A stretch of 64,000 nucleotides of DNA from Candidatus Aceula meridiana. GTDB lineage: Bacteria > Omnitrophota > Gorgyraeia > Zapsychrales > Aceulaceae. Where the stretch lies: positions 108,007 through 172,006 of the forward strand of contig JAVCDE010000026.1 of NCBI GenBank assembly GCA_030765185.1, read 5' to 3'. Both the position numbers and the translations under genes were made by a program. The notes beneath the pieces were generated by a model. That model searched no databases and was not told the DNA's origin. It saw only the letters and a program-made list of their open reading frames with translations. This document shows, piece after piece, positions 2,801 through 22,410 of this stretch; within the stretch, counting starts at the first letter, position 1; every line of letters starts with the position of its first letter.

Positions 2801-3264
2801 ATTTCCCCTTCAATCGCTGCGAGCGTGAGTATGCCTTTGGCAACAATTTTTCGTCCTACAGTTGCTTCGACATTGTAAGAATATAGATTTTCAAATTTTT
2901 CTCTGCTCTCGGAGATTAATTCAAGAGTTTCTCCTGGAAAAGCAGGGGAAGTGAATTTTACATTAGACGAGGCAAGATAAAATAACTTCGGGGGTTCGTT
3001 TTCCTTGTCCGAAGTTGTTTTTTTAGTGAATCCAAGCAGAAGCCCACTTGTTTGGGCCAAGGCATCGAGCACCAAAGCACCCGGCATAATGGCTTTTTGA
3101 GGGAAGTGTCCTTCAAACCAGGGTTCGTCTGACCGTATTGTTCTTTCGGCTATTATTATTTTATTAGGTTTAAATTTGATGACTCTATCGACAAAAAGAA
3201 AAGGCGGGCGATGGGGGATGATATCAAGAATTTCGTTTAGTCCAAAGATTGTTTTTTTATCCAT
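2797..3264 (-). CDS. fabZ: 3-hydroxyacyl-[ACP] dehydratase
   Basis: Carries IIPHRPPFLFVDRV ... EPWFEGHFPQKAIMPGALVLDALAQ, the canonical FabZ hot-dog motifs. 155 aa. Confidence 0.88.
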   Translation of the reverse strand: MDKKTIFGLNEILDIIPHRPPFLFVDRVIKFKPNKIIIAERTIRSDEPWFEGHFPQKAIMPGALVLDALAQTSGLLLGFTKKTTSDKENEPPKLFYLASSNVKFTSPAFPGETLELISESREKFENLYSYNVEATVGRKIVAKGILTLAAIEGEI

Positions 3265-3267
3265 AGG

Positions 3268-4065
3268 TCAGTACTCTTTTTCAACAGTTGTTATGATGTG
3301 GGTAGATCCTCGCCCGGATTCTAGTCCTTCATATTTTACCCAAACATGAGGGCTTTCTTTTGTATACCAGAGCAGGGTCGGCGGAACAAACCTATCCAGA
3401 ATTAAATTGAATGCTCCCATGTCTGGCCGGATAGTTATTTTTATAGTTTCAATTTCTTCTGATCCAATTAACAATTTGTCTTCTTTAACAAAACGCGCTT
3501 TCAATTTATAAAGCCCGGGTTCACTGCTTAGGAAATTAAAGGAGATTGTTTTTCTCGCAATAAGGTCATTAATAAATGGCCTCAAAAAATAAATAAGAGT
3601 CGCGTAATCAGTGGTGCGAGTTTTTAAAGGTAATGTTGATTTTTCTGTTATTTTATTGTTTGCATTTTTTTCTGTAATCCGAATGACTTTTTTATTATAG
3701 TCATATTCTTTTTTGCAGGCATTGATATTCTTTCCGTTCTTATCGCTTATGGTGAACGCGGTATAAACAGGAGAAAGGACGTTTTGATTGAGTTCTGTCT
3801 CAGATTCAATAGTCCAGGCCACATCTCGAAATTTGCCGTAGCTTCCTTTTCCGGATTTAATGAGCAGGTAACGATTGTCAGAAATTTTTTTAAAATTGAC
3901 AGATAATCGGGATAGGAAAATCCCTGTTTTTTTCTCAATTGTTGTTTGTTGGTAGATTTCATGTTCAGGGAATGTATATTGGCCGAAGCTTTTAACAGGA
4001 AATACAAGAAGCGCTAAAATGATAGAAATAATTGATGATATCTTTTTCATGCCGAATTGTAACAT
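3268..4065 (-). CDS. secreted DUF3108-like protein
   Basis: Has an N-terminal signal peptide (KKISSIISIILALLVFPVKSFGQ). 265 aa. Sits co-directionally upstream of fabZ. The family assignment is from recall only. Confidence 0.4.
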   Translation of the reverse strand: MLQFGMKKISSIISIILALLVFPVKSFGQYTFPEHEIYQQTTIEKKTGIFLSRLSVNFKKISDNRYLLIKSGKGSYGKFRDVAWTIESETELNQNVLSPVYTAFTISDKNGKNINACKKEYDYNKKVIRITEKNANNKITEKSTLPLKTRTTDYATLIYFLRPFINDLIARKTISFNFLSSEPGLYKLKARFVKEDKLLIGSEEIETIKITIRPDMGAFNLILDRFVPPTLLWYTKESPHVWVKYEGLESGRGSTHIITTVEKEY

Positions 4066-4806: not shown

Positions 4807-5358
4807 GTGAAAACAATTTCATTCATTTTAAGTATGCTCGTTTTTTTCGGTTTATGCTCACCATCTGTTCAAGCTCAAGAGCCAATCAATGTCTATGGCT
4901 TTGACGTTGAAGATATCGATGGGAATCCAGTCTCGCTATCGAATTACAAGGGCAAGGTTCTTTTAATTGTTAATACAGCTTCGCGATGCGGTTTTACGCG
5001 TCAATATAAGCCCCTGGAAGAACTTTATCAGAAATACAAAGATCAAGGGCTCGTCGTCTTAGGTTTTCCGGCTAATAATTTTATGAATCAGGAGCCAGGA
5101 ACAAACGAAGAAATTAAAAACTTTTGTTTTCTCAATTACAAAACGACATTCCCGTTATTTTCCAAGATTAGCGTAAAAGGAAAAGACATCCATCCGCTTT
5201 ACGGTTATTTAACAACTCAGGGAGAGTTTCCTGGAGCTATTACCTGGAATTTTAATAAATTTTTAATTGGCAAGGATGGCCAAGTTATCGGGCGTTTTGG
5301 AGCCCGTGTAGACCCACTTGATCCTAAAATTGTTTCTGCGATTAAAGACCAACTTTAA
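4807..5358 (+). CDS. glutathione peroxidase with signal peptide
   Basis: Has FDVEDIDGNPVSLSNYKGKVLLIVNTASRCGFT (GPx catalytic Cys motif) and LGFPANNF. An N-terminal signal peptide is present. Confidence 0.85.
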   Translation: MKTISFILSMLVFFGLCSPSVQAQEPINVYGFDVEDIDGNPVSLSNYKGKVLLIVNTASRCGFTRQYKPLEELYQKYKDQGLVVLGFPANNFMNQEPGTNEEIKNFCFLNYKTTFPLFSKISVKGKDIHPLYGYLTTQGEFPGAITWNFNKFLIGKDGQVIGRFGARVDPLDPKIVSAIKDQL

Positions 5359-5362
5359 AGAA

Positions 5363-5390
5363 CGCTATACTGAAATAGCGGTATTTTAGG
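5363..5390 (+). terminator. candidate terminator hairpin CGCTAT-actgaa-ATAGCG followed by a T-rich run
   Basis: Inverted repeat just 3' of the gpx stop. Confidence 0.35.
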
Positions 5391-5407
5391 TGAGGTCTTC
5401 ACAAGAC

Positions 5408-5472
5408 AGGTTCTAACTCGTTTGACCCAGCGACCCCAGCTTTTAAGCCTGCTCTCCCGACGAGGTTAGGAT
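5408..5472. repeat. copy A of a conserved intergenic motif (AGGTTCTAAC ... CCCAGCGACCCCAGC)
   Basis: Shares AGGTTCTAAC and CAGCGACCCCAG with the copies at 7976 and 6990. It is flanked by an imperfect inverted repeat GGTTCTAACTCG / CGAGGTTAGGA. Confidence 0.5.
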
Positions 5473-5649
5473 TTCTTATTAACAAATTAACAACTTCTTC
5501 CCTTTGCATTAAGCTTATTGTTTTGGGAACATTTTGATTCCTTATGATTAAAGCCAGCTAGAATTCATTGACAATTTAGAGAGGGGTGTTAGATTGTTTC
5601 TAAATAAATTTACTTTCGATGTGACAATATTTTAAATGGAGTTACCACA

Positions 5650-6933
5650 ATGAAATTTTTATTTGTCTCTATTGACGCCCTGATCAATGACATCGCGTGG
5701 CAGGTAGCGAAAGAAGGGCACGACGTACGTTACTACATCAAAAATAAAAACGTACGTGACATCGCAGATGGATTTGTCCCAAAAACAGAAGACTGGCGCC
5801 GCGATGTTGATTGGGCGGATGTTATTGTGTTTGATGATGTTTTAGGTCAAGGCAAGGACGCTGCGCGATTAAGGGCTAAGGGTAAAAAGGTTATCGGCGG
5901 CACCCCCTACACTGACAAGCTTGAGGATGACCGCTCTTTTGGACAGGAGGAGCTTAAGAAATATGGGGTTAATATTCTTCCCTATCAGGAATTCAATTCG
6001 TTCGATGAAGCCATTGATTTTGTTAAGGCCAATCCGTCGCGCTATGTGATTAAGCCGAGCGGCGAGGCGCAAAATATCAAGCGGCTACTTTTCATTGGGG
6101 AGTCGGACAACGGTGAGGATGTAATCCAGGTTCTGGAAAGCTATAAGCGCGCCTGGGCGAAGCATATCAAGGTCTTCCAATTGCAGAAGCGCGTGACCGG
6201 GGTGGAAATTGCTGTTGGCGCCTTTTTTAATGGAAATGAGTTTATGCTTCCCATCAATATTAACTTTGAACATAAAAAGCTTTTTCCCGGAAACATCGGG
6301 CCATCTACCGGCGAGATGGGGACATCGATGTATTGGAGCAGCGAAAATAAAATTTTTAATGCCACCTTAAAAAAACTTGAGCCCAAGCTGAAGAAAGAGG
6401 GGTATATCGGCTACATCGACATTAACTGCATTGTGAATGCCTCGGGCATCTACCCTCTTGAATTTACATCACGCTTCGGATATCCGACCATCAACATACA
6501 GCAGGAGGGGATATCAATGCCGATCAGCGAATTCTTTTACGGCATGGCATCAGGAACACTTAAGAATTTTAAGACTAAAAATGGATTTCAGGTTGGAGTG
6601 CGTATCGTGATGCCGCCCTACCCTTTTAAGGATGAAAAGACCTTCAGAGATTGCTCCAAAGACGCCGTTATATTCTTTAAGAAGCCAAACGTAGAGGGGG
6701 TTCATATAGTCGATACCAAATTGGTTAACGGTCAGTGGTTGGTGGCCGGTGATACGGGTGTCGTTCTGGTTGTCTGCGGAACCGGCTCAACGCTCAAACA
6801 GGCCAGGGCTCAGGCTTATGCACGCGTTAGTAACATTATGATTCCCAGTATGTATTACCGCACGGATATCGGTGAGCGCTGGTATGAAGATAGCGACAAA
6901 CTGCATTCCTGGGGCTATCTTAGAGAAATGTGA
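5650..6933 (+). CDS. purD: phosphoribosylamine--glycine ligase (divergent N-domain)
   Basis: ATP-grasp protein. GPSTGEMGT matches the PurD GPNTGGMG loop, and the C-terminus ARAQAYARVSNIMIPSMYYRTDIG matches the PurD C-domain. The N-domain lacks the usual GGREHA motif. Confidence 0.65.
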   Translation: MKFLFVSIDALINDIAWQVAKEGHDVRYYIKNKNVRDIADGFVPKTEDWRRDVDWADVIVFDDVLGQGKDAARLRAKGKKVIGGTPYTDKLEDDRSFGQEELKKYGVNILPYQEFNSFDEAIDFVKANPSRYVIKPSGEAQNIKRLLFIGESDNGEDVIQVLESYKRAWAKHIKVFQLQKRVTGVEIAVGAFFNGNEFMLPININFEHKKLFPGNIGPSTGEMGTSMYWSSENKIFNATLKKLEPKLKKEGYIGYIDINCIVNASGIYPLEFTSRFGYPTINIQQEGISMPISEFFYGMASGTLKNFKTKNGFQVGVRIVMPPYPFKDEKTFRDCSKDAVIFFKKPNVEGVHIVDTKLVNGQWLVAGDTGVVLVVCGTGSTLKQARAQAYARVSNIMIPSMYYRTDIGERWYEDSDKLHSWGYLREM

Positions 6934-6980
6934 TCTTGGCTTATTTGATTCGTTTCGACTCATAGGCTATTTCGAAATTC

Positions 6981-7000
6981 GCTGATGAAGCGACCCCAGC
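6981..7000. repeat. copy B of the motif (GCTGATGAAGCGACCCCAGC)
   Basis: Shares GCGACCCCAGC with copies A and C. Followed by the hairpin at 7006-7044. Confidence 0.4.
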
Positions 7001-7005
7001 TATAA

Positions 7006-7044
7006 AACCTCCTTGCAGCTTATTCAGCCGAAAGGAGGTTTTAC
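7006..7044 (+). terminator. hairpin AACCTCCTT-N16-AAGGAGGTT followed by TTTT
   Basis: 9-bp perfect stem. Confidence 0.45.
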
Positions 7045-7140
7045 TGTATCTTCTATGTAAGGGCGGAATCTTTTTTTTGTTTAAAAGAGTGTATGAGAGC
7101 ATCCTGATACAATAAATTATTAAAAAAAGGAGATTACGGT

Positions 7141-7935
7141 ATGAATTCATCTCAAATAAGAAAGATGCTGAACAAGGTTCCAGAAGTCACCATTTATTTC
7201 TGGATAATCAAAGTTTTGTGTACAACGGTAGGAGAGACTGCCGCAGACTATCTAAATGAGGCGCTGAATTTTGGATTGACTGGAACGTCGCTTGTTATGA
7301 GTGTTTTGCTAATTTTCATAATGTTTTTTCAATTTAAAACTAAAAAATATATTCCATCAATTTACTGGCTTGCTGTTGTTTTAATTAGTATCGTTGGTGC
7401 TTTGATAACTGATAATCTGTCGGATAACTTTAATATTCCGCTTGAAGCGACAATCATCGTATTTTCGATTCTTCTCATTCTAACTTTTAGTGTGTGGTAT
7501 AGGGCTGAGAAGACGTTGTCTATATGCGCAATTGATACTCCTCGATGAGAAGCCTTTTATTGGTTAGCTGTCCTATCTACTTTTGCCTTGGGGACGGCCG
7601 CTGGTGACCTTATAGCTGAGAAATTTGGCATTGGGTATTTAAATTCAATATTTATATTTGGAAGCATTGCCATTGTCGCAATCGTTTACTATGGAGCGAA
7701 AGGAACTGCGGAGCATAAGCTTGAATCCATGTACGCAATTTTAGCTTTTTGGGTTGCTTATATTTTTACACGACCATTTGGCGCATCGATAGGTGATTAT
7801 TTGTCCCAGGTTCATGCTGACGGCGGTCTCGGGTTTGGAGCAATGACAACAAGCGCACTTTTCCTTATTTCGATTTTAGGTCTTGTGATGTATCTAACTT
7901 TTACGAGAAAGGATGAGATTTCTGCAAAAGATTGA
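7141..7935 (+). pseudogene. two-repeat membrane protein (COG4705-like) interrupted by an in-frame TGA at 7546-7548
   Basis: ORFs 7141-7548 and 7588-7935 are in the same frame. Read-through gives ...TPR*EAFYWLAVLSTFALGTAAGDLIAEKF. The second half (GTAAGDLIAEKFGIGYLNSIFIF) is an internal repeat of the first (VGETAADYLNEALNFGLTGTSLVM). Confidence 0.5.
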
Positions 7936-7975
7936 AAATATTTTGCAGAAAGTTAGGGCGCGAACTGTATTAAAT

Positions 7976-8006
7976 AGGTTCTAACCTGGCCCAGCCAGCG
8001 ACCCCA
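7976..8006. repeat. copy C of the motif (AAATAGGTTCTAACC ... CAGCGACCCCAG)
   Basis: Direct sequence similarity to copies A and D. Confidence 0.5.
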
Positions 8007-8014
8007 GATAATAA

Positions 8015-8050
8015 CCCTCTGTGAGTCAATGACTTGCAGTGGGTTTTTTG
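8015..8050 (+). terminator. rho-independent terminator CCCTCTG-loop-CAGTGGG + T6
   Basis: Stem with one mismatch followed by TTTTTT. Confidence 0.5.
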
Positions 8051-8193
8051 TAACTCTTTGGCGCGAGGTAGAGCTTTTTAAGATGAGATATAATTAAATT
8101 TTTGCCTTTCACAAATCAATCTTTTTCTTTAATTATTTTTTATTATTTGTTATAATTCTTTCGAATGTGAAATGAAAAAGAAGGGATATCAGA

Positions 8194-9960
8194 ATGGATT
8201 TTGGAGAATTTGAGTTTTATAAAAGAAAAATAATCATTAGGATTAAAAATAGAATCTGCGAAAATTCTGATGAACTAATTTCTAGCAAATTGTTTTTATG
8301 TATTTTGAAAAAGTGTATACAGGACCTACAGGTACGTGATTCCGATCTACTTGCAATATTTAAAACAAAGAAAATAGATGACGCAGACATTAAGAAATTG
8401 GTTCAAACATTCTTGTATTTGACAAAAATGAAGAGGGACTTGGTCCCTAATGTTGTAAAAGGGGCAGAAACATTCTTAAAGGATAGAATGTTGTTTAATG
8501 ATTTTGTTGAATATCTATATAATTATTGGCGAAGTTTTGACCGCTTCATTATTTGTTCCTCAGAAGAAGCAGATGTTGAGCCACGTCCTTATCGTATTTT
8601 TAATGAAACAATCGAGCAATTAACCCATTTGGTGAGGGCGACTTATCGTGATATTGAAGAAAATATCACAGGAGCTCACCCTAACATTTATCGTCAGGTT
8701 CGCGCTGGAGCTGAAGTGGCTTCTATTGCAACTGCTCAAGAAATTAATTTCCCTTCAGAGGTTTATAATAAGTTAAACGTCATTCCAATGATTCGTCAAG
8801 TTCTTTTGTATCCACCGCTTATTTTAAATCCTTCGATGAATAAAAGAACGGGGGTTTTTGAAAGAGTTTACAAGAATCCTTTGGATGGGTTAAATATTAA
8901 GAAAAAAGAGTGGGTTTGTTATCCTGCCAAGGTTGGGGAACTTCTGATTTTAATTTATTTTCATAACATCTTTGTTGAGCTGGGATATTCTTTAGCAAAT
9001 CTTTTTCAATTGGCAGATGAGGCCGATTTGCAAAGAAAACCAGATGCTGTTTATTGTTTTGGTGTTCCTGAAAGCACTGTAAAAGGTTTAGGAAAATACC
9101 AAACAGTTTTCTTCGACGATGAAGAAAATGGGATGCTTTCTGCGGTTGTTCCTAGAGGCGAGGAGTTTGGTTATTTTGGGTATTTGAAAAAAATGGTATT
9201 AACTCTTCATAATATTGTGATGATGAAGAAAGGGCAAATGCCTTTTCACGGGGCATTGGTCGATGTTACATTAAAGACAAAGAGACGGGCAACAGTTTTA
9301 TTGATTGGAGATAGCGGGGCGGGAAAATCTGAAACATTGGAGGCATTTCGAGAAATTGGAGATGAGGTCATCAAAGATATTAATATTATCGCAGATGATA
9401 TGGGCTCTATTAGAATGAATAAGAAAAAAGAGGCTGTGGGGATAGGAACTGAAATTGGGGCTTTTTTAAGGTTAGATGATTTAAAACCTGGATATGCGTT
9501 TGGACAAATAGACAGGGCTATCATTATGAGTGCCAATAAGGTGAATGCACGGATTATTATGCCTATTACAGCATATGAACGTGTAATTAAAGAACATAAG
9601 ATCGATTTCATATTGTATGCGAATAATTATGAACAAACTGATAGTGACCATCCTTTAATTGAACGAATTACAGATGCTCAAAAGGCTTTAGATGTTTTTA
9701 AAGAAGGAACTGTTATGAGCAAGGGCACGACAACAGCAACGGGTTTGGTTCATTCCTATTTTGCTAATATCTTTGGTCCTCCTCAATATAGAGAATTACA
9801 TGATAAAATTGCGAGAAAATTTTTTAAGATATTCTTTGATAAAAGAATTTTTGTAGGGCAAATGCGGACGCGTCTTGGAATTCTAGGATATGAGCAGAAA
9901 GGTCCGGAAGATGCAGCCAGAGCATTATTGGAAATCATAAATTCAGGGACGGCGTGTTAG
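8194..9960 (+). CDS. 588-aa protein with C-terminal HPr-kinase/PEPCK-like P-loop domain
   Basis: VLLIGDSGAGKSETLEAF ... IADDMGSIR resembles the HprK C-domain Walker A (GDSGxGKSE) and the downstream ADD motif. The N-terminal ~330 aa are unrecognised. Confidence 0.55.
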   Translation: MDFGEFEFYKRKIIIRIKNRICENSDELISSKLFLCILKKCIQDLQVRDSDLLAIFKTKKIDDADIKKLVQTFLYLTKMKRDLVPNVVKGAETFLKDRMLFNDFVEYLYNYWRSFDRFIICSSEEADVEPRPYRIFNETIEQLTHLVRATYRDIEENITGAHPNIYRQVRAGAEVASIATAQEINFPSEVYNKLNVIPMIRQVLLYPPLILNPSMNKRTGVFERVYKNPLDGLNIKKKEWVCYPAKVGELLILIYFHNIFVELGYSLANLFQLADEADLQRKPDAVYCFGVPESTVKGLGKYQTVFFDDEENGMLSAVVPRGEEFGYFGYLKKMVLTLHNIVMMKKGQMPFHGALVDVTLKTKRRATVLLIGDSGAGKSETLEAFREIGDEVIKDINIIADDMGSIRMNKKKEAVGIGTEIGAFLRLDDLKPGYAFGQIDRAIIMSANKVNARIIMPITAYERVIKEHKIDFILYANNYEQTDSDHPLIERITDAQKALDVFKEGTVMSKGTTTATGLVHSYFANIFGPPQYRELHDKIARKFFKIFFDKRIFVGQMRTRLGILGYEQKGPEDAARALLEIINSGTAC

Positions 9961-10063
9961 GCAGTGTGAGTATTTACAAAGCTTTGTTTGGGAAAAGCAG
10001 ATTAGAAAGGTTTTAATCTGTTCCATTTAGTCACCTCAGTACTTTTTATAGGATTAATGAGAA

Positions 10064-10462
10064 ATGACATCTTTAGATAAAAATAATAATTTTGATACTC
10101 GAGCAACATGCTTAAATTGTATGGATGGGCGAGTTCAGCTACCAGTTTTATATTGGATTAGAGAGAAATATCATATTGATTTTGTAGATGTTATTACAGA
10201 AGCGGGCATAGACAAAATAATAGCCTTACAGGAAAACATTGATGAAATTATTCGCAGTATTGAAATTTCAGTTAATACTAATAAATCTTCTCGAATCTTT
10301 GTTGTAGGTCATTATGATTGTAAGGGAAATTCTGTTGATAAAAAGACTCACCATGAACATATTTTAAAGTCCGTCAAGAGATTAAAGACGCTTTGGTCAG
10401 AATTTGAAATTATTGGACTTTGGGTTAATAGTCATTGGCAAGTAGAGGTTTGTTGTAAATAG
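10064..10462 (+). CDS. small beta-carbonic-anhydrase-like zinc-site protein
   Basis: CMDGR (CxDxR) and HYDCKG (HxxCG) lie about 63 aa apart, matching beta-CA zinc ligands. At 132 aa it is shorter than canonical beta-CA. Confidence 0.35.
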   Translation: MTSLDKNNNFDTRATCLNCMDGRVQLPVLYWIREKYHIDFVDVITEAGIDKIIALQENIDEIIRSIEISVNTNKSSRIFVVGHYDCKGNSVDKKTHHEHILKSVKRLKTLWSEFEIIGLWVNSHWQVEVCCK

Positions 10463-10498
10463 GTTTTAATTTTGCTCCACCCATCGACCGACCTCAAC
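10460..10498. repeat. copy D of the motif (AAATAGGTTTTAAT ... CCCATCGACCGACC), overlapping the stop codon
   Basis: Shares AAATAGGTTyTAA and CCCAnCGACC with copy C. Confidence 0.4.
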
Positions 10499-10532
10499 TT
10501 TATTAGTTGCTAAAGCTAGTTAATAAATAATA

Positions 10533-10568
10533 AAATCCTTAAAGGTAATTGCTTTTAAGGATTTTTTG
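10533..10568 (+). terminator. rho-independent terminator AAATCCTTAAA-loop-TTTAAGGATTT + T-run
   Basis: 10-11 bp perfect stem followed by TTTTTT. Confidence 0.55.
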
Positions 10569-10639
10569 CGATTTTTGTATTTTCTTTTGTATTCTTTTTA
10601 ACATGTTATAATGCGTTCATCTATATATCGATAGTAAAG

Positions 10640-10673
10640 TAGAGAGTTTTTATGGAAGATAATAATTTAGAAT
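10640..10673 (+). repeat. 34-bp direct repeat, copy 1 (duplicate of the rsmB-like RBS and first 7 codons)
   Basis: TAGAGAGTTTTTATGGAAGATAATAATTTAGAAT matches 11543-11576 with 2 mismatches. It encodes MEDNNLE followed by a stop. Confidence 0.7.
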
Positions 10674-10675
10674 AA

Positions 10676-10945
10676 GGAATATTTATTGGATCTATCGCTG
10701 GCGCACTTTCTTCGAGAGGCCCTTACGTGAGCATGCCGATTGCCGCCGGGCTTATCCGTTCGGGTGCCAGCGTTGGGACAATGGTTGCTTTTTTAACCGG
10801 CTGGTCGCTTTGAGCATTAAGCCGGTTGCCTATTGAGCTAGGAATATTAGGCTGGCGCTTGATGTTGATTCGCCTTGTCAGTATTTCTATTTTTCCTTCC
10901 TTAGCAGGCTTCATTGCGTTGGGTGTGGCGAAGTTAATAAAATAA
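10676..10945 (+). pseudogene. C-terminal remnant of a polytopic permease gene with an internal TGA
   Basis: Single frame reading ...SMPIAAGLIRSGASVGTMVAFLTGWSL*ALSRLPIELGILGW... The remnant is locally GC-rich compared with its surroundings. Similarity to PF03773/DUF318 permeases is from recall. There is no N-terminal portion or start codon. Confidence 0.4.
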
Positions 10946-11029
10946 AGGTCCGCGTAAAGGACGTGCGGACAGGTAAAGTTGTTAAATGTTATTAAACAAA
11001 TGTATTTTGTACAGACAAAAGGAGAAGAC

Positions 11030-11497
11030 ATGGAACAAAATGAAAGTTTTTTTAAAAAAATTTTTTCATGGACAAACATTGGGCTTGCTTTTCTTACAGT
11101 CGTTGCGGTTTTTTCTATCTCTCAATTAGTTGAGTCTTGGAAGCCAGAGGAACCTTTGGCTCCTCTGGTAAGCAGTGAGGAAGAAGATTTCTTTGCAGAA
11201 GAGGCAGTTCCGGAGATTGTTCAGGAGCCGGAGGCAGAGACAGCGCTTTTGCAACCCTTGGTTGAAAAGAAGTTTGTTATCCAGGTTGCTGCGTTTCGAG
11301 GCCAAAAAGGAGCGGACGCTGTTGTGGAAGAATTAAAAAAGAAAGGCTATGAGCCTATCATTAAGACAGAAGATTCAGGAAGCGAAGGAGCTTTGCATCG
11401 TGTTTATGCAGGTGCCTTTGAGACCAAAGATCAGGCTCAGAGTATCCTGGATGAAGTAAAAAAAGATTATCCAGGGTCTTTTATTAAACAGTTGTAG
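11030..11497 (+). CDS. SPOR-domain protein with N-terminal TM anchor
   Basis: Strong SD (AAAGGAG) before the ATG at 11030. C-terminus FVIQVAAFRGQKGADAVVEELKKKGYEP ... HRVYAGAFETKDQAQSILDEV is SPOR-like. Confidence 0.55.
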   Translation: MEQNESFFKKIFSWTNIGLAFLTVVAVFSISQLVESWKPEEPLAPLVSSEEEDFFAEEAVPEIVQEPEAETALLQPLVEKKFVIQVAAFRGQKGADAVVEELKKKGYEPIIKTEDSGSEGALHRVYAGAFETKDQAQSILDEVKKDYPGSFIKQL

Positions 11498-11542
11498 CAC
11501 GAAAAAGTTAGCGTTTCGCCTTCATTTAGAGAATCAAAGAAA

Positions 11543-11576
11543 TAGAGAATTTTTATGGAAGATAATAACTTAGAAT
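11543..11576 (+). repeat. 34-bp direct repeat, copy 2 (native 5' end of the rsmB-like gene)
   Basis: See copy 1. Confidence 0.7.
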
Positions 11577-13642: not shown

Positions 13643-15276
13643 AAAAGAAGTCAGAAAATAATTTTATTAGAATTGATGAGATTCTGTTAACTCTTGACGA
13701 AAAGGAGAGTGTTTTATCGTCTAAGATCGCGAAGATCTTAGGGGTTTATGAAAAGGATATTCTTCGTTTTCATATTGCCAAACGCGCCATTGATTCGCGT
13801 AAAAAAGAGAACATTTTTTTTGTTTATTCTGTTAATGTTGAGCTAAAAAATCCGCAAAATTATTTGTCCCGCCAAAGACGATTATCATCAACATTGAAAA
13901 AGAAAGCTCTTCGCCATAAGGTTCGATGGCTAGCGCCGTATGTCTATGAAGGTAAAAAACCTAAATCAGATTGTTTGCATCGTCCGATTGTGGTGGGTGC
14001 TGGGCCTAGCGGATTATTTTGTGCCTTAGTTCTTGCCCGGGCAGGGTTAAAACCATTAGTTGTTGATCGTGGCCCGGATGTGGATATACGTGCTAAAGAT
14101 GTGAATGAATTCTTTTCTACGGCAAAGCTTAATGTGAATTCTAATGTGCAGTTTGGCGAAGGAGGCGCTGGTACTTTCTCAGATGGTAAATTGTATACAA
14201 ACATTAAGGACCCAAGGACAAAATATATTTTTGACGAGATGGTTATTGCTGGTGCTCCAAAAGAGATCATGACGGACGCTCATCCGCACATTGGAACCGA
14301 TAGGTTGCGCACAGTTGTAAAGAATTTGCGCAAAAGTATTGTTGCTCTCGGAGGCGACGTAAGATTTAATACATGCTTAACGGACATTGAGACAAGCGCA
14401 AAAAAGGTTGTTTCGGCTACTTTTAACGGAAGAGAGAAAGCTTTGGTAGATGATCTCGTTGTCGCGATTGGTCATTCCGCACGCGATACATATCAGATTC
14501 TTTACGAGAAGAAGTTAGAAATGAAACCTAAGATGTTTTCTGTTGGATTGAGGATCGAGCACCCTGCTGAATTAATTAATAAATCTCAATATGGAGAATA
14601 TTGTAACCACCCTAAGTTGCCAACGGCAAAATACAAGCTCGTAGCCCACCTTAAAGATAAACGTTCGGTGTATACTTTTTGTATGTGTCCTGGAGGTTTT
14701 GTTGTCGCGGCTTCTTCAGAAGAAGGGATGGTTGCCGTTAACGGGATGAGCATGTATGCGCAAAACGGCAAGAATTCTAATAGCGCGCTCATGGTTAACG
14801 TAACGCCGGATGATTTTGAGTCGGATCATCCCTTGGCAGGAGTTGAGTTTCAGCGTACCTGGGAGAGGATGGCATTTTTAGCCGGAGGAAAAGATTATCG
14901 CGCACCAGCCCAGCTTGTTGGAGATTTTTTAAAAGATTTGCCATCGAAAAAATTCGGGAGCGTCGAGCCTACTTATAAGCCTGGGGTCACGATGACGTCT
15001 TTGGCAGGATGCTTGCCGGATTACGTCATTGAAAGTATTAAATCAGCATTGCCAGTTTTAGATAGAAAAATTAAAGGGTTTGCTAAAGAAGATGCTCTGC
15101 TTATCGGCGTTGAAACGCGCAGTTCAGCTCCGGTAAAATTTGTGCGTGATGAAAATCTACAGTCTAATATTATAGGAATTTATCCAGTAGGAGAAGGCTC
15201 TGGATATGCCGGTGGCATTGTGTCTGCTGCCATTGATGGAATGAAGGCAGCTGAGAGCATTATTAGTAAGTTTTAA
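13639..15276 (+). CDS. FAD-dependent protein (COG2509-like)
   Basis: IVVGAGPSGLFCALVLARAG is a dinucleotide-binding motif. 545 aa. The start overlaps the previous stop (ATGA). Confidence 0.65.
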   Translation: MKKKSENNFIRIDEILLTLDEKESVLSSKIAKILGVYEKDILRFHIAKRAIDSRKKENIFFVYSVNVELKNPQNYLSRQRRLSSTLKKKALRHKVRWLAPYVYEGKKPKSDCLHRPIVVGAGPSGLFCALVLARAGLKPLVVDRGPDVDIRAKDVNEFFSTAKLNVNSNVQFGEGGAGTFSDGKLYTNIKDPRTKYIFDEMVIAGAPKEIMTDAHPHIGTDRLRTVVKNLRKSIVALGGDVRFNTCLTDIETSAKKVVSATFNGREKALVDDLVVAIGHSARDTYQILYEKKLEMKPKMFSVGLRIEHPAELINKSQYGEYCNHPKLPTAKYKLVAHLKDKRSVYTFCMCPGGFVVAASSEEGMVAVNGMSMYAQNGKNSNSALMVNVTPDDFESDHPLAGVEFQRTWERMAFLAGGKDYRAPAQLVGDFLKDLPSKKFGSVEPTYKPGVTMTSLAGCLPDYVIESIKSALPVLDRKIKGFAKEDALLIGVETRSSAPVKFVRDENLQSNIIGIYPVGEGSGYAGGIVSAAIDGMKAAESIISKF

Positions 15277-20928: not shown

Positions 20929-22410
20929 ATGAGTGGAATTTGTGGAGCAGTTTCTAGGCAAAATTGCGCGAAAACATTATTTTATGGCATTGATTATCAT
21001 TCGCATTTAGGAACAGAATACGGTGGTATGGCTATCTGGGGGAAAGAGCTTTTTCGTCGGATTCATCATATTAGCCAAACTCAATTTAAATCTAAGTTCT
21101 TTGATGACTATCGGGATATGAATGGCAATTTAGGCATTGGCGTGATCAGCGACTTGGATGAACAGCCGATCTATTTAAATTCAAAGTTTGGGCCATTTTG
21201 CATCGTGACCGCTGGCCTTGTTGAAAACAAAGAAGATCTTGAAAAATTTCTTTTTGAAAAAGGAATTTCGTTTTCTGAAGTTAGCCCGGCTGGTCTTAAT
21301 ACCACCGAACTTATTGCTAAGTTGATTAGCCTTGGGGACAATTTGATCGATGGCATTGAGAAAATGTTTGATAAAATTGAAGGATCCTGTTCGCTCTTGC
21401 TTTTAACCAAGGATGGAGTTTATGCAGCGCGTGACAGACTCGGATATACTCCACTTGTGATTGGAAAAAAGGAAGGGGAATGGATTGTTGCCTCAGAAAG
21501 CAATGCATTGCCAAATCTCGGCTTTAAGATTGAAAAGTTTTTAGAGCCTGGCGAAATTGCACTTTTAAATAAAGACGGCCTAACCGTTGCTAAACCGGGA
21601 TTAGATAAAAGTCAGATATGTTCATTTTTATGGATATACACTGGATTTCCGGCCTCGATATACGATGGCATTAACGTCGAGACTGTCCGCGAGCGTTGCG
21701 GAAGAGCCATGGCGAAAAAAGATAAGGATATCAACGCAGATGTTGTCTCTGGAGTTCCTGACTCAGGGATAGCTCATGCGATTGGCTATGCCATGGAATC
21801 TGGCGTGCCTTATCGTCGCCCTCTTGTAAAATATACCCCTGGCTATGGCCGAAGCTATACGCCTCCGAGTCAAGAAACAAGAGACCTTGTCGCGACCATG
21901 AAACTTATTCCTGTTAAAGATATTATTAATGGAAACAGCATTGTTGTTTGCGAAGATTCTATTGTCCGCGGAACGCAGCTTAAGAATTTTACGGTTAATA
22001 AACTTTGGGACGCTGGGGCAAAAGAAATTCATGTCAGACCTGCCTGCCCTCCTCTAATGTTTCCTTGCAAATTTTGCCTTTCAACAAAAAGCATCAATGA
22101 GTTGGCAGCTCGTAAAGCTATCAAAGGCTTAGAGGGTAAAGACATCGAAAATATTTCTGAATATCTAGATACAAGCACTGAAAAGTATAAAAAAATGGTT
22201 GAGTGGATTCGAAAAGATTTGGAAGTAACCACTCTTCGTTATCAGGATCTTGAGGATATGGTTGAGGCTATTGGTTTGCCGCGTGAAAAATTGTGTCTTT
22301 ATTGTTGGAATGGTGAGTGCCCTCCAAAAGATCAGGACAAAACTAAAAAAATAAAAAGAGCAACAGGCTTGCTTAGCAAAATAGTAAGTTTATTTAAAAA
22401 AGAGGCTTAA
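20929..22410 (+). CDS. purF: amidophosphoribosyltransferase with short propeptide and C-terminal Cys cluster
   Basis: MSGIC|G exposes an N-terminal Cys (Ntn amidotransferase). The PRTase region SGVPDSGIAHAIGYAMESGVPYR ... CEDSIVRGTQ is present, and LCLYCWNGEC is a 4Fe-4S-type tail. Confidence 0.8.
   Translation: MSGICGAVSRQNCAKTLFYGIDYHSHLGTEYGGMAIWGKELFRRIHHISQTQFKSKFFDDYRDMNGNLGIGVISDLDEQPIYLNSKFGPFCIVTAGLVENKEDLEKFLFEKGISFSEVSPAGLNTTELIAKLISLGDNLIDGIEKMFDKIEGSCSLLLLTKDGVYAARDRLGYTPLVIGKKEGEWIVASESNALPNLGFKIEKFLEPGEIALLNKDGLTVAKPGLDKSQICSFLWIYTGFPASIYDGINVETVRERCGRAMAKKDKDINADVVSGVPDSGIAHAIGYAMESGVPYRRPLVKYTPGYGRSYTPPSQETRDLVATMKLIPVKDIINGNSIVVCEDSIVRGTQLKNFTVNKLWDAGAKEIHVRPACPPLMFPCKFCLSTKSINELAARKAIKGLEGKDIENISEYLDTSTEKYKKMVEWIRKDLEVTTLRYQDLEDMVEAIGLPREKLCLYCWNGECPPKDQDKTKKIKRATGLLSKIVSLFKKEA

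Follow-up and report, generated by a model that had tools for sequence, protein, structure and literature searches.

A conserved motif at gene 3' ends in Candidatus Aceula meridiana and other uncultured bacteria, a probable boundary of single-gene cassettes

In integrons and CALINs a recombination-type site, attC, lies 3' of a mostly single-gene unit and often includes the stop codon. The units form co-oriented, head-to-tail arrays with a heterogeneous accessory or toxin-antitoxin cargo, the same cassette is found in different arrays, and CALIN arrays, clusters of attC sites, have no adjacent integrase. In the pdif (Xer) modules of Acinetobacter plasmids, a few genes are enclosed by short sites of 28 bp that are conserved in sequence and have two inverted binding arms; the sites flank modules in alternating orientation, the modules are shared between replicons and the recombinase is encoded elsewhere in the genome. 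REP/BIME sequences and terminator-carrying MITEs, for example Correia elements, are palindromic, numerous and dispersed in both orientations; they are short repeats found after genes, are co-transcribed, sometimes carry terminators and can be recombination hot spots. In tandem accretion at tRNA genes, as in the tycheposon islands of Prochlorococcus, arrays of cargo DNA are split by direct repeats of the attachment sequence, with islands nearby that carry primases and recombinases.

The window analysed here is the whole stretch of 64,000 nt from Candidatus Aceula meridiana (Omnitrophota), contig JAVCDE010000026.1. Its motif, and the gene arrays with the same motif in other contigs, share the features listed above for integrons and CALINs, the short conserved site that bounds small modules in the pdif system, the position and behaviour of REP and Correia repeats, and the direct repeats and nearby islands of tRNA-gene accretion. 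Unlike pdif sites, the motif lacks dyad symmetry, and its copies are without exception direct repeats. The motif is probably a conserved recombination boundary at the 3' edge of mobile, mostly single-gene cassettes, and the array in the window a decaying one.

Table 1. Features of the motif array in the window, with positions counted from its first nucleotide.
Feature	Position	Strand	Description
Glutathione peroxidase gene	4807..5358	+	Pfam GSHPx, E=8e-41; upstream of first site
Site A	5401..5443	+	Left block AGGTTCTAAC 5408-5417, N11, core AGCGACCCCAG 5429-5439; exact pattern
Right arm of A, degenerate	5461..5473	+	GACGAGGTTAGGA; inverted repeat of left block; read from sequence
Promoter-like site of purD-like gene	5568..5595	+	TTGACA-16-TAGATT, TG upstream of second hexamer; consensus match only
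purD-like ATP-grasp gene (putative cassette 1)	5650..6933	+	Pfam GARS_A and GARS_C; between A and B
Site B	6989..6999	+	Exact core AGCGACCCCAG alone; left block lost
Terminator hairpin after B	7003..7043	+	18-nt arms, 89% complementary; RNA fold z=-2.8
DUF347 (COG4705) membrane protein gene (putative cassette 2)	7141..7935	+	Pfam DUF347 on both halves
Site C	7969..8009	+	TTAAAT-AGGTTCTAAC-CTGGCCCAGCC-AGCGACCCCAG; exact pattern; best-preserved copy
Terminator hairpin after C	8013..8050	+	T-run; terminator scan, 9-bp stem plus TGGGTTTTTT
Right arm of C, degenerate	8062..8075	+	GCGCGAGGTAGAGC; aligns with right arm of complete elements
Gene for 588-aa protein (putative cassette 3)	8194..9960	+	Weak HprK_C / PEPCK / P-loop; between C and E
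Site E	10008..10039	+	AGGTTTTAATCTGTTCCATTTAGTCACCTCAG; decayed copy, first recognised in follow-up
Small carbonic-anhydrase-like gene (putative cassette 4)	10064..10462	+	Pfam Pro_CA_2, E=1e-42
Site D	10461..10498	+	Decayed copy AGGTTTTAAT...CCATCGACCGACCTCA; read from sequence
Terminator hairpin after D	10532..10567	+	T-run; RNA fold 15-bp stem, then UUUUUU

The preliminary description of this DNA counted four copies. The motif is real, and copies A and C are intact, with AGGTTCTAAC-N11-AGCGACCCCAG starting at 5408 and 7976; A (5408-5439) reads AGGTTCTAACTCGTTTGACCCAGCGACCCCAG and C (7976-8007) reads AGGTTCTAACCTGGCCCAGCCAGCGACCCCAG, and a motif profile (nhmmer) gave them 31 bits (E=7e-8) and 45 bits (E=4e-12). 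Copy B was reduced to its core, the sequence 5' of which is unrelated to the motif, and is a marginal profile match (E=3.7). Copy D is decayed (AGGTTtTAAt...CCAtCGACCgaCCtCA) and a fifth copy, E, had been missed; neither is detected by the profile. D is accepted as a copy because of its position, since in L048 and L049 an intact site follows the carbonic-anhydrase gene at the corresponding place. The TAG stop of the carbonic-anhydrase gene in the window lies inside the AAATAGG junction with site D, and the homologues in L046, L048, L049 and L053 end in the same AA(G/A)TAG-GTTCTAAC junction. Site E is identical to C at 21 of 32 bases, the mismatches being mostly C/G to T. In the window, L046 and L048 the start codon of the carbonic-anhydrase gene is preceded at 21-24 nt by a site or decayed site, the distance being 24 nt for E and 21 nt for the intact copy in L048.

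All five copies are on the + strand within 5 kb, and no further copy was found in the remaining 59 kb of the window with pattern and profile searches. The sequence GCGACCCCAG occurs exactly three times in the window, all on the + strand and within 2.6 kb, while shuffled sequence gave a mean of 0.9 matches even with one mismatch permitted. The left half alone (AGGTTYTAAC, one mismatch) was not above chance in the window.

The earlier gene assignments agree with the Pfam matches; those of the HprK-like protein are weak (E=7e-4 to 8e-3), below the curated cut-offs. The glutathione peroxidase gene may either anchor the array or be the first of its cassettes, and no motif copy was found upstream of it by pattern and profile search of the window. 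The purD-like gene has a homologue in L005/L006 that is 82% identical and flanked by a different repeat. The DUF347 gene contains an in-frame TGA at 7546-7548, where the homologue in L027 has Arg. Boxes resembling the promoter-like site of the purD-like gene (TGTTATAAT) are found at 8148-8156 and 10604-10612, as consensus matches only, and a TGT.A.A.T box can be aligned in four of the four intergenic regions of the array. The GC content across the array varies from 0.33 to 0.46 per kb. The window is best read as an old, decaying array in the order glutathione peroxidase, A, purD-like, B, DUF347 (with the nonsense mutation), C, HprK-like, E, carbonic anhydrase, D.

The motif is shared beyond Candidatus Aceula meridiana by Omnitrophota and other uncultured bacteria. 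One metagenome scan with the pattern AGGTTCTAAC-N{5,13}-AGCGACCCCAG gave 32 contigs, with a gap of 11 in all but one; a few chance matches are expected by estimate. The consensus of the site is about 44 nt, (A)TCAAAC/TTAAAT-AGGTTCTAAC-N4-TyCmnCC-AGCGACCCC-AG-(T-rich), and its limits are sharp: over 46 distinct copies the information content reaches background 8 nt 5' of the left block and about 4 nt 3' of the core. Of 47 instances, nearly all are preceded by an ORF on the same strand whose end falls between -115 and +9 relative to the left block, often with its stop codon within the site. At least two copies were present in 14 of 32 non-redundant loci, none of them with mixed strands; neighbouring copies are 445-3568 bp apart (median about 1.2 kb) and usually enclose a single ORF, and L048, an Omnitrophota MAG from NCBI, has 5 copies in 4 kb. 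The site is conserved at about 100%, compared with 70-83% nucleotide identity of the preceding genes. The motif is found in many other contigs and always in the same context, rather than at random or without conservation, which favours a real element; that it is local and not dispersed is judged from the 64-kb window and the fetched loci.

The terminator hairpins previously reported after three of the four copies were confirmed for B, C and D. They are true terminators with compensatory changes, and the hairpin after C is homologous to the helix in which these changes occur. Copy A has no terminator hairpin on its 3' side and a small hairpin on its 5' side, at 5363-5380. A real terminator directly after many copies, the position at gene 3' ends, the terminal inverted repeats of a complete 114-nt form and lone copies after ordinary operons (L027) are all compatible with a REP/BIME- or MITE-like element, selfish or domesticated, that stabilises or terminates transcripts and causes rearrangements only as a by-product of homologous recombination; a related genome, L005, has a different short palindrome at its stop codons. 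We consider this origin unlikely, and the 3' stabiliser proposed at first holds only as a loose analogy. Unlike REP/BIME and Correia repeats, the conserved 32 nt are not palindromic, the copies are clustered and not dispersed in the 64 kb, they are co-oriented with the upstream gene and never on both strands of a locus, and they are common to distant genomes. There are no evident target-site duplications at A or C, and some arrays have neither terminator nor right arm. REPs are normally species-specific, and the retention of the site across contigs of 37-59% GC would be unusual for them.

Co-transcription with the upstream gene, just 5' of the terminator, and a C-rich stretch without predicted structure could also suggest a cis-acting RNA element, such as a riboswitch, an attenuator or a 3'-UTR site for a protein or sRNA, that co-regulates the flanking genes. 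This is very improbable. The preliminary description could match the motif to no known riboswitch consensus, and Rfam gave no family at gathering or lax thresholds; no conserved pairing was found beyond the terminator, several arrays have no terminator to modulate, and the downstream genes are unrelated with promoter-like sites of their own. The element also stays with the upstream gene when the neighbours change, and the proposed riboswitch or attenuator of a regulon is not upheld. A role of the motif as a 5' regulator is largely refuted.

The imperfect inverted repeat described around A is real (AGGTTCTAACTCGT / ACGAGGTTAGGA), and its right arm is homologous to GACGGGACGTTAGAAC of the complete 114-nt elements, which are found in one sublineage. 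The left and right arms of A fold as DNA no better than shuffles (z=-0.3); the right arm of C pairs with the left block in an RNA fold with z=-4.3, including the terminator. The ends of the complete elements, GTTCTAAC...GTTAGAAC, each agree with RYYYAAC / GTTRRRY in 6 of 7 positions and form a bulged helix, and the size of the elements is inside the attC range. Together with the co-oriented arrays, one site per gene, the stop codon often inside the site and the accessory or toxin-antitoxin content, this would fit divergent attC sites in CALINs, recombined as folded bottom strands by an IntI encoded elsewhere. That explanation is nevertheless quite unlikely. Compensatory changes between the left and right arms were found in 0 of 10 pairs, and the right arm is optional, being missing from entire arrays (L048) and from copy B. 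For CCAGCGACCCC, the most conserved block, neither strand offers a complementary partner. Unlike attC, the site is conserved in sequence and not in structure, and its conserved 32-44 nt cannot self-fold. The junction is placed right after the conserved core and not at the G|TT of the R' box in the right arm, promoter-like sites and terminators of their own are present in many units, and no intI was found in any locus examined. The arrays thus resemble those of integrons closely but lack both defining features of integrons, the hairpin sites and the integrase.

Direct repeats flanking inserted DNA are also left by successive integrase-mediated island insertions at one tRNA gene, and the copies could then be duplicated leftovers of the tRNA 3' end. 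CCAGCGACCCC is the antisense of a segment of the variable loop and T-stem in the tRNA-Pro gene of L049, and some loci contain integrases and a primase-bearing island. The match is, however, antisense, and an att duplication would involve another part of the tRNA; the Rfam tRNA model gave no partial match to the motif even at E<=5. ARAGORN found no tRNA in the window or next to any site in 32 motif-bearing metagenome loci (L014-L045), where the tRNAs that it did find are separated from the closest site by at least about 0.8 kb. Unlike tycheposon-type accretion, there is neither a tRNA gene or tRNA-like fold nor a consistent recombinase, and the repeats flank single genes without an integrase. 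An origin from tRNA genes is extremely doubtful.

The preferred reading, a cassette boundary, develops the earlier suggestion of cassette-boundary remnants, which is supported by arrays on one strand, one site per gene unit, recurrent genes and similarity that ends at the motif. What lies between the copies is a mixture of unrelated accessory genes: cupin, isochorismatase, NagB-like, Fic, SLT, BrnT, GST, carbonic anhydrase, MORN/T2SSG, zinc ribbon, YhcG nuclease and RHH-type antitoxins, the last judged solely by reading N-terminal sequences. The unit of carbonic-anhydrase gene and 3' site is found in the window, L046, L048, L049 and L053 with differing neighbours, while L023 has a carbonic-anhydrase homologue on a motif-bearing contig with no adjacent site. 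The DUF347 gene, the cupin gene and the BrnT/BrnA pair are also recurrent. L022 and L036 are 94% identical through a GST gene and its site and unrelated directly after ...CCCCAG, and L020 and L045 share 94-97% identity as far as the site; in both pairs the similarity stops inside the motif or at its end.

A cassette would begin directly 3' of one site and include the whole of the following site. It would start with a short leader or a promoter of its own, carry a single gene or, rarely, two, and close with the site, at or within which the stop codon lies. Such units accumulate head to tail in a single orientation, which makes each array a series of direct repeats. The site is followed in many lineages by an intrinsic terminator, which would insulate the next unit, and in one sublineage also by a partial inverted copy of the left block. 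Recombination at the 3' end of the site, or close beside it, may mobilise the units, probably in the form of circles with one site each, like integron cassettes, and a putative recombinase would act in trans and not be encoded beside the arrays. None of the arrays was found to have a recombinase next to it, and the genes adjoining the arrays of the window, L048 and L046 are ordinary ones. Three motif copies have large serine recombinases nearby, but the identity among these enzymes is only 20-34%. Neither circular nor excised forms were seen, and near-identical genomes showed no presence/absence polymorphism; the ENA contigs from this population are 100% identical to the window. Ordinary homologous recombination at a perfect repeat of about 32-44 nt could explain the breakpoints without a dedicated enzyme.

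It also counts against the cassette reading that some single copies follow ordinary operons outside the arrays, for example in L027, after a putative ABC-transporter permease gene (annotated by eye only), and in L041.

The repetition of a motif after successive genes, which the preliminary description had noted at four places, holds, and the table includes one further copy. The gene assignments made there agree with the domains found, namely GARS_A/GARS_C in the purD-like protein, DUF347 (COG4705), weak HprK_C/P-loop matches in a 588-aa protein and Pro_CA_2 in the carbonic anhydrase. The T-run hairpins reported after three copies are present after B, C and D. They agree with a Rho-independent terminator, a G+C-containing stem-loop before a T-run whose stem is maintained by compensatory changes, the last being seen in the aligned elements described below. 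The inverted repeat bracketing A was also recovered, and C has a degenerate equivalent of it at 8062-8075. Pattern and profile searches restricted the copies to a single 5-kb stretch of the 64 kb; the array has five sites in 5.1 kb. The purD-like and carbonic-anhydrase proteins are 100% identical to those of a MAG of Candidatus Aceula meridiana, encoded on a contig of 196,579 bp, and NCBI taxonomy assigns this genus to Candidatus Omnitrophota. There are exactly three occurrences of the 10-mer GCGACCCCAG in the 64 kb, always on the + strand and within 2.6 kb, and shuffled sequence gave a mean of 0.9 matches to it even with one mismatch permitted. The left half of the motif by itself showed no excess over chance in the window.

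Copies of the site in the window, in order of position
Copy	State	Position	Strand	Basis
A	intact	5408-5439	+	AGGTTCTAAC-N11-AGCGACCCCAG in sequence
B	core alone	6989-6999	+	read from sequence
C	intact	7976-8007	+	AGGTTCTAAC-N11-AGCGACCCCAG in sequence
E	decayed; fifth copy, added here	10008-10039	+	just upstream of the carbonic-anhydrase gene
D	decayed	10461-10498	+	read from sequence

Metagenome contigs were scanned once with the pattern AGGTTCTAAC-N{5,13}-AGCGACCCCAG, which gave 32 contigs (L014-L045), where a few matches were expected by chance according to our own estimate, and the gap was exactly 11 nt in all but one. A profile built from these copies recovered additional, slightly diverged copies in the same contigs and also matched NCBI Omnitrophota MAGs reached through carbonic-anhydrase homologues (five copies in L048, which is from assembly GCA_043817155.1, and one in L049). 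The consensus of 46 distinct copies, at.AaacAGGTTCTAAC.t..Tcc.gccAGCGACCCCag.ttt, is near-invariant in sequence, and information content is at background about 8 nt 5' of the left block and about 4 nt 3' of the core. Because the drop is sharp on both sides, the site is discrete and about 44 nt long. Copies outside the exact-pattern selection retain both blocks, with one to three changes. GC content in the site-bearing contigs runs from 37% to 59%, and the named relatives are all Omnitrophota. A protein of the GC-rich contig L028 has its nearest named relatives in Aureabacteria and others, at only 37-46% identity, which is too distant to assign a taxon.

Structure was examined in ten aligned 'complete' elements of 114 nt, consisting of left block, core, terminator and right arm (GACGGGACGTTAGAAC), the last being a partial inverted copy of the left block. 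Pairing in the terminator stem reaches 90%, and both sides change in 5 of 13 pairs; these compensatory changes show that the terminators are genuine and kept by selection. Of the 10 pairs in the long-range helix that joins the left block to the right arm, none had a compensatory change, and the helix adjacent to it had such changes through one sequence only. Folded as DNA, copy A was no better than shuffled sequence (z=-0.3). All five sites in L048 lack both terminator and right arm, and copy B of the window lacks the right arm, which is present in one sublineage and has a degenerate form at copies A and C. The inverted repeat is an optional trait of one lineage, and the universal entity is a non-palindromic site of 32-44 nt. 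Further 3' of the right arm, a block GTAATCTAACC...TGTTATACCTCGGTACAATTGATTCATT is conserved in one sublineage (L036 1202-1260 and 1833-1900; also L020, L025, L031 and L042) and has the appearance of a common promoter or leader serving the unit that comes next.

A riboswitch or attenuator, the first of the readings proposed in the preliminary description, is a conserved, covarying structure placed in the leader 5' of the gene that it regulates, and usually has a known Rfam model. Rfam had no match at the gathering score to the window or to 20 loci, and at E<=5 no relevant one to the array or to the metagenome contig L036. The terminator is the sole covarying helix and the motif remains with the upstream gene, so that this reading fails on all three counts. 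REP/BIME elements, also proposed there, are short imperfect palindromes with a conserved GTAG-type head, dispersed in both orientations, and MITEs are dispersed copies with terminal inverted repeats and a target-site duplication. The 32-nt motif has no internal dyad and the reverse complement of its core occurs nowhere nearby; the window copies lie only in the 5-kb array of the 64 kb, and no mixed-strand locus was seen. The REP/BIME and MITE readings thus fail on palindromy, orientation and, in the limited sequence tested, dispersal, and no target-site duplications were evident at A or C.

Several further readings were rejected. A coding function is contradicted by the frames ...QVLTxxxQRPQ and GSNxxxPATP, which are open in many copies and closed in others, and none of the three is open on the upstream side of the site in the metagenome contig L031. 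An RNA hairpin within N11 had no register consistent between variants. tRNA genes are common attachment sites, and an att repeat of this origin equals the 3' portion of an intact tRNA gene next to it. ARAGORN found no tRNA or tmRNA, either in the window or next to a site in the loci scanned, and the Rfam tRNA model had no partial match to the motif, so that a tRNA-derived repeat fails on both. The core CCAGCGACCCC agrees over 11 identical nt with the antisense strand of a tRNA-Pro(UGG) gene in L049 (2433-2448, -), in its variable-loop/T-stem segment, probably by coincidence. The reverse complement of the motif begins GGGGTCG, as considered for a Tn3-type inverted repeat; there is no inverted partner, and length and inner end do not fit those of Tn3-family repeats. 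In the right-arm region, CGTTTGAAC...TATACC looked similar to an IS91/ISCR-type end, but this reading was dropped, with no matching sequence in the paper examined and no HUH transposase near.

The site is placed regularly with respect to genes. An ORF on the same strand directly precedes it in nearly all of 47 distinct instances, with the stop codon at -115 to +9 of the left block and often formed by a TAA or TAG within the site. Multiple copies were found in 14 of 32 non-redundant loci, none with mixed strands. The copies are spaced 445-3568 bp apart (median about 1.2 kb), usually bracketing one ORF, and L048 has five sites in 3.9 kb. The genes so enclosed are accessory ones without functional relation to each other: cupin, isochorismatase, NagB-like, Fic, lysozyme-like, BrnT toxin, GST, carbonic anhydrase, MORN/pseudopilin-like, zinc-ribbon proteins and YhcG nuclease, together with RHH-type antitoxins judged by eye from N-terminal sequences only. 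From unit to unit of the window array, GC shifts between 0.33 and 0.46 per kb.

Two genes of the window array have features of their own. The unit between C and E (8194-9960) encodes the 588-aa protein, whose matches to the HPr kinase C-terminal domain, PEPCK and an ABC P-loop are weak and sub-threshold. The purD-like ATP-grasp protein (5650-6933) has thousands of homologues at >70% identity, labelled Omnitrophota, Chitinophagales, Bacteroidia and even Nanoarchaeota. Conservation across such distant taxa is unusually high for a protein without a known role. In several comparison contigs (L001-L004, L007) the purD-like gene is followed at once by a gene for an MgtE Mg2+ transporter, or has that gene one gene away.

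The same units recur in different surroundings. In the window and in the comparison loci L046, L048, L049 and L053, AA(G/A)TAG-GTTCTAAC forms the end of the carbonic-anhydrase gene, and the DNA 3' of its site is different in each of the five. In the window, L048 and L046 a second copy, intact or decayed, lies 21-24 nt 5' of the carbonic-anhydrase start and is followed by a similar short leader. Measured from core end to next core end, this unit is about 445-453 bp, with its boundaries at the core. Other genes recurring in site-bearing contigs are DUF347 (window and L027, 70% nucleotide identity), cupin (L014 and L023, 83%) and the BrnT/BrnA pair (L017 and L031, 74%). Between the metagenome contigs L022 and L036, identity is 94% across a GST gene and its site, and similarity is lost right after ...AGCGACCCCAG, before the terminator and right arm. 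Between L020 and L045 identity is 94-97% as far as the site, with unrelated sequence beyond. Thus the site is better conserved than the genes preceding it and coincides with recombination junctions.

A discrete conserved site, polarity, arrays, recurring units and junctions at the site are therefore established, and the polar arrays, the recurring units and the ending of similarity at the site support the third reading of the preliminary description, that of cassette boundaries. Units would move through recombination at or beside the 3' end of the site, in the simplest form as single-site circles that are inserted next to a copy already in place, with catalysis in trans by a putative enzyme encoded elsewhere. 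Possibly the same junctions arise without such an enzyme, through homologous recombination between the identical 32-44-nt repeats. In a check for polymorphism, ENA contigs with the same carbonic-anhydrase protein were 100% identical to the window. Our tentative reading, slightly on the doubtful side of even, is a distinct integron-analogue capture system, in which single genes with one sequence-conserved, non-hairpin site of about 44 bp would be inserted beside a resident copy by its own recombinase acting in trans, forming polar arrays in Omnitrophota and other uncultured lineages (contigs of 37-59% GC). The recombinase of this capture system could be of serine, tyrosine or Xer type. Large serine recombinases near copies in L041, L045 and L049 are not supported as the cassette enzyme, with mutual identity of only 20-34% and inconsistent distances and orientations. 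No tyrosine recombinase was found among the Pfam-scanned neighbours of the window, L046 and L048 arrays (in the window to about 29 kb), and single-sequence phmmer gave no match of window ORFs to the L027 tyrosine integrase or to the L045 and L041 serine recombinases. The sole tyrosine integrase seen, in L027, is adjacent to a tRNA gene and 7.5 kb from a lone site.

Integrons are the textbook platform for stockpiling single genes as cassettes. The present arrays share with integron arrays and with CALINs (clusters of attC sites lacking an integrase) one site per unit at the 3' end, polar order, recurring cassettes and a cargo of accessory and toxin-antitoxin genes. Integron arrays and CALINs have at least two co-oriented sites within about 4 kb, one per cassette, and the present arrays agree with this. 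A complete integron requires intI beside the array, while a CALIN does not, and no intI was found among the neighbours scanned. The attC site is an imperfect inverted repeat (R''-L''...L'-R') folding to a hairpin; it carries R and L boxes, and its central spacer is unpaired; its structure is conserved and its sequence variable, and it is recognised by shape rather than by sequence (PMC9024848). The present site, in contrast, is fixed in sequence, and most copies have no fold. The junction in attC is at G|TT of R', the whole attC staying with the upstream ORF, whereas here it lies directly after the core. In fold, variability and junction the site therefore lacks the defining properties of attC, a family that is absent from Rfam. 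At its two ends attC has R'' (RYYYAAC) and R' (GTTRRRY); TTCTAAC of the left block and GTTAGAA of the right arm agree with these at 6 of 7 positions each, the right arm being restricted to one sublineage (degenerate in window copies A and C). The likeness of GTTCTAAC...GTTAGAAC to RYYYAAC...GTTRRRY in that sublineage may be regarded as a remaining lead towards attC.

The window array looks old: B is without its left block, D and E show erosion towards A+T, and the DUF347 gene has a nonsense change. The latter is an in-frame TGA at 7546-7548, where the L027 homologue has Arg (CGA), so that the gene would be a pseudogene or would require read-through. The comparison locus L046, from assembly GCA_028693815.1, whose gene order is partly common with the window (SPOR gene, carbonic anhydrase, Mla operon), has strongly eroded copies after successive genes at about 694, 7823, 9941, 10394 and 11319, more eroded than those of the window and set around the carbonic-anhydrase gene that both have. 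These copies suggest that arrays may decay in place and that their genes become fixed. In the window, 15 nt upstream of rsmB and its first 22 nt are duplicated (10637-10673 and 11540-11576; 903 bp apart, 92% identity), and the upstream partial copy meets a stop after seven codons. Between the two lie an apparent broken membrane-permease fragment (about 10680-10945, by eye) and a SPOR-domain gene (10979-11497). The duplication suggests that the cassette array may have undergone an insertion or a rearrangement at its downstream edge.

The element appears to be undescribed, because nothing like it was found in Rfam, in plasmid and phage collections or in the literature searched. A scan of a genome collection without the window's own genome, using core and downstream pattern, gave only five unrelated single matches; two patterns gave no match in viral contigs, and blastn gave no match to a complete element in plasmid and phage records. 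In the literature searched there was nothing relevant on the motif strings, nor on integrons or cassettes in Omnitrophota, an uncultured group with very small cells. If the capture system is real, it would be a second kind of cassette array, read by a fixed 44-nt sequence, and such genome organisation would have arisen more than once. It would also account for the odd, unrelated and partly decaying genes at the window locus, and would give a simple sequence tag with which to mine or amplify the mobile gene pool of Omnitrophota. The recombinase reading the site is then a concrete search problem.

Other repeated elements were seen in another Omnitrophota genome. A 21-nt palindrome, AATAGGGGTCAGCGCCCTATT, lies exactly at stop codons in L005 (9877-9897, 11285-11305 and 14223-14243 on the + strand, 21143-21161 on the - strand), in the same way in L006, and on both sides of an 82%-identical purD-like gene. 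It has AATAGG and CAGCG.CCC in common with the window motif, and may be a short relative of that motif or a boundary element independent of it. L005 has in addition a second type of repeated module between genes, a terminator hairpin with a promoter-like TATAATG box, present four times (3116-3165, 3772-3821, 6205-6254 and 14468-14517) between small genes (BrnT/BrnA, glyoxalase and others) in an island-like region.
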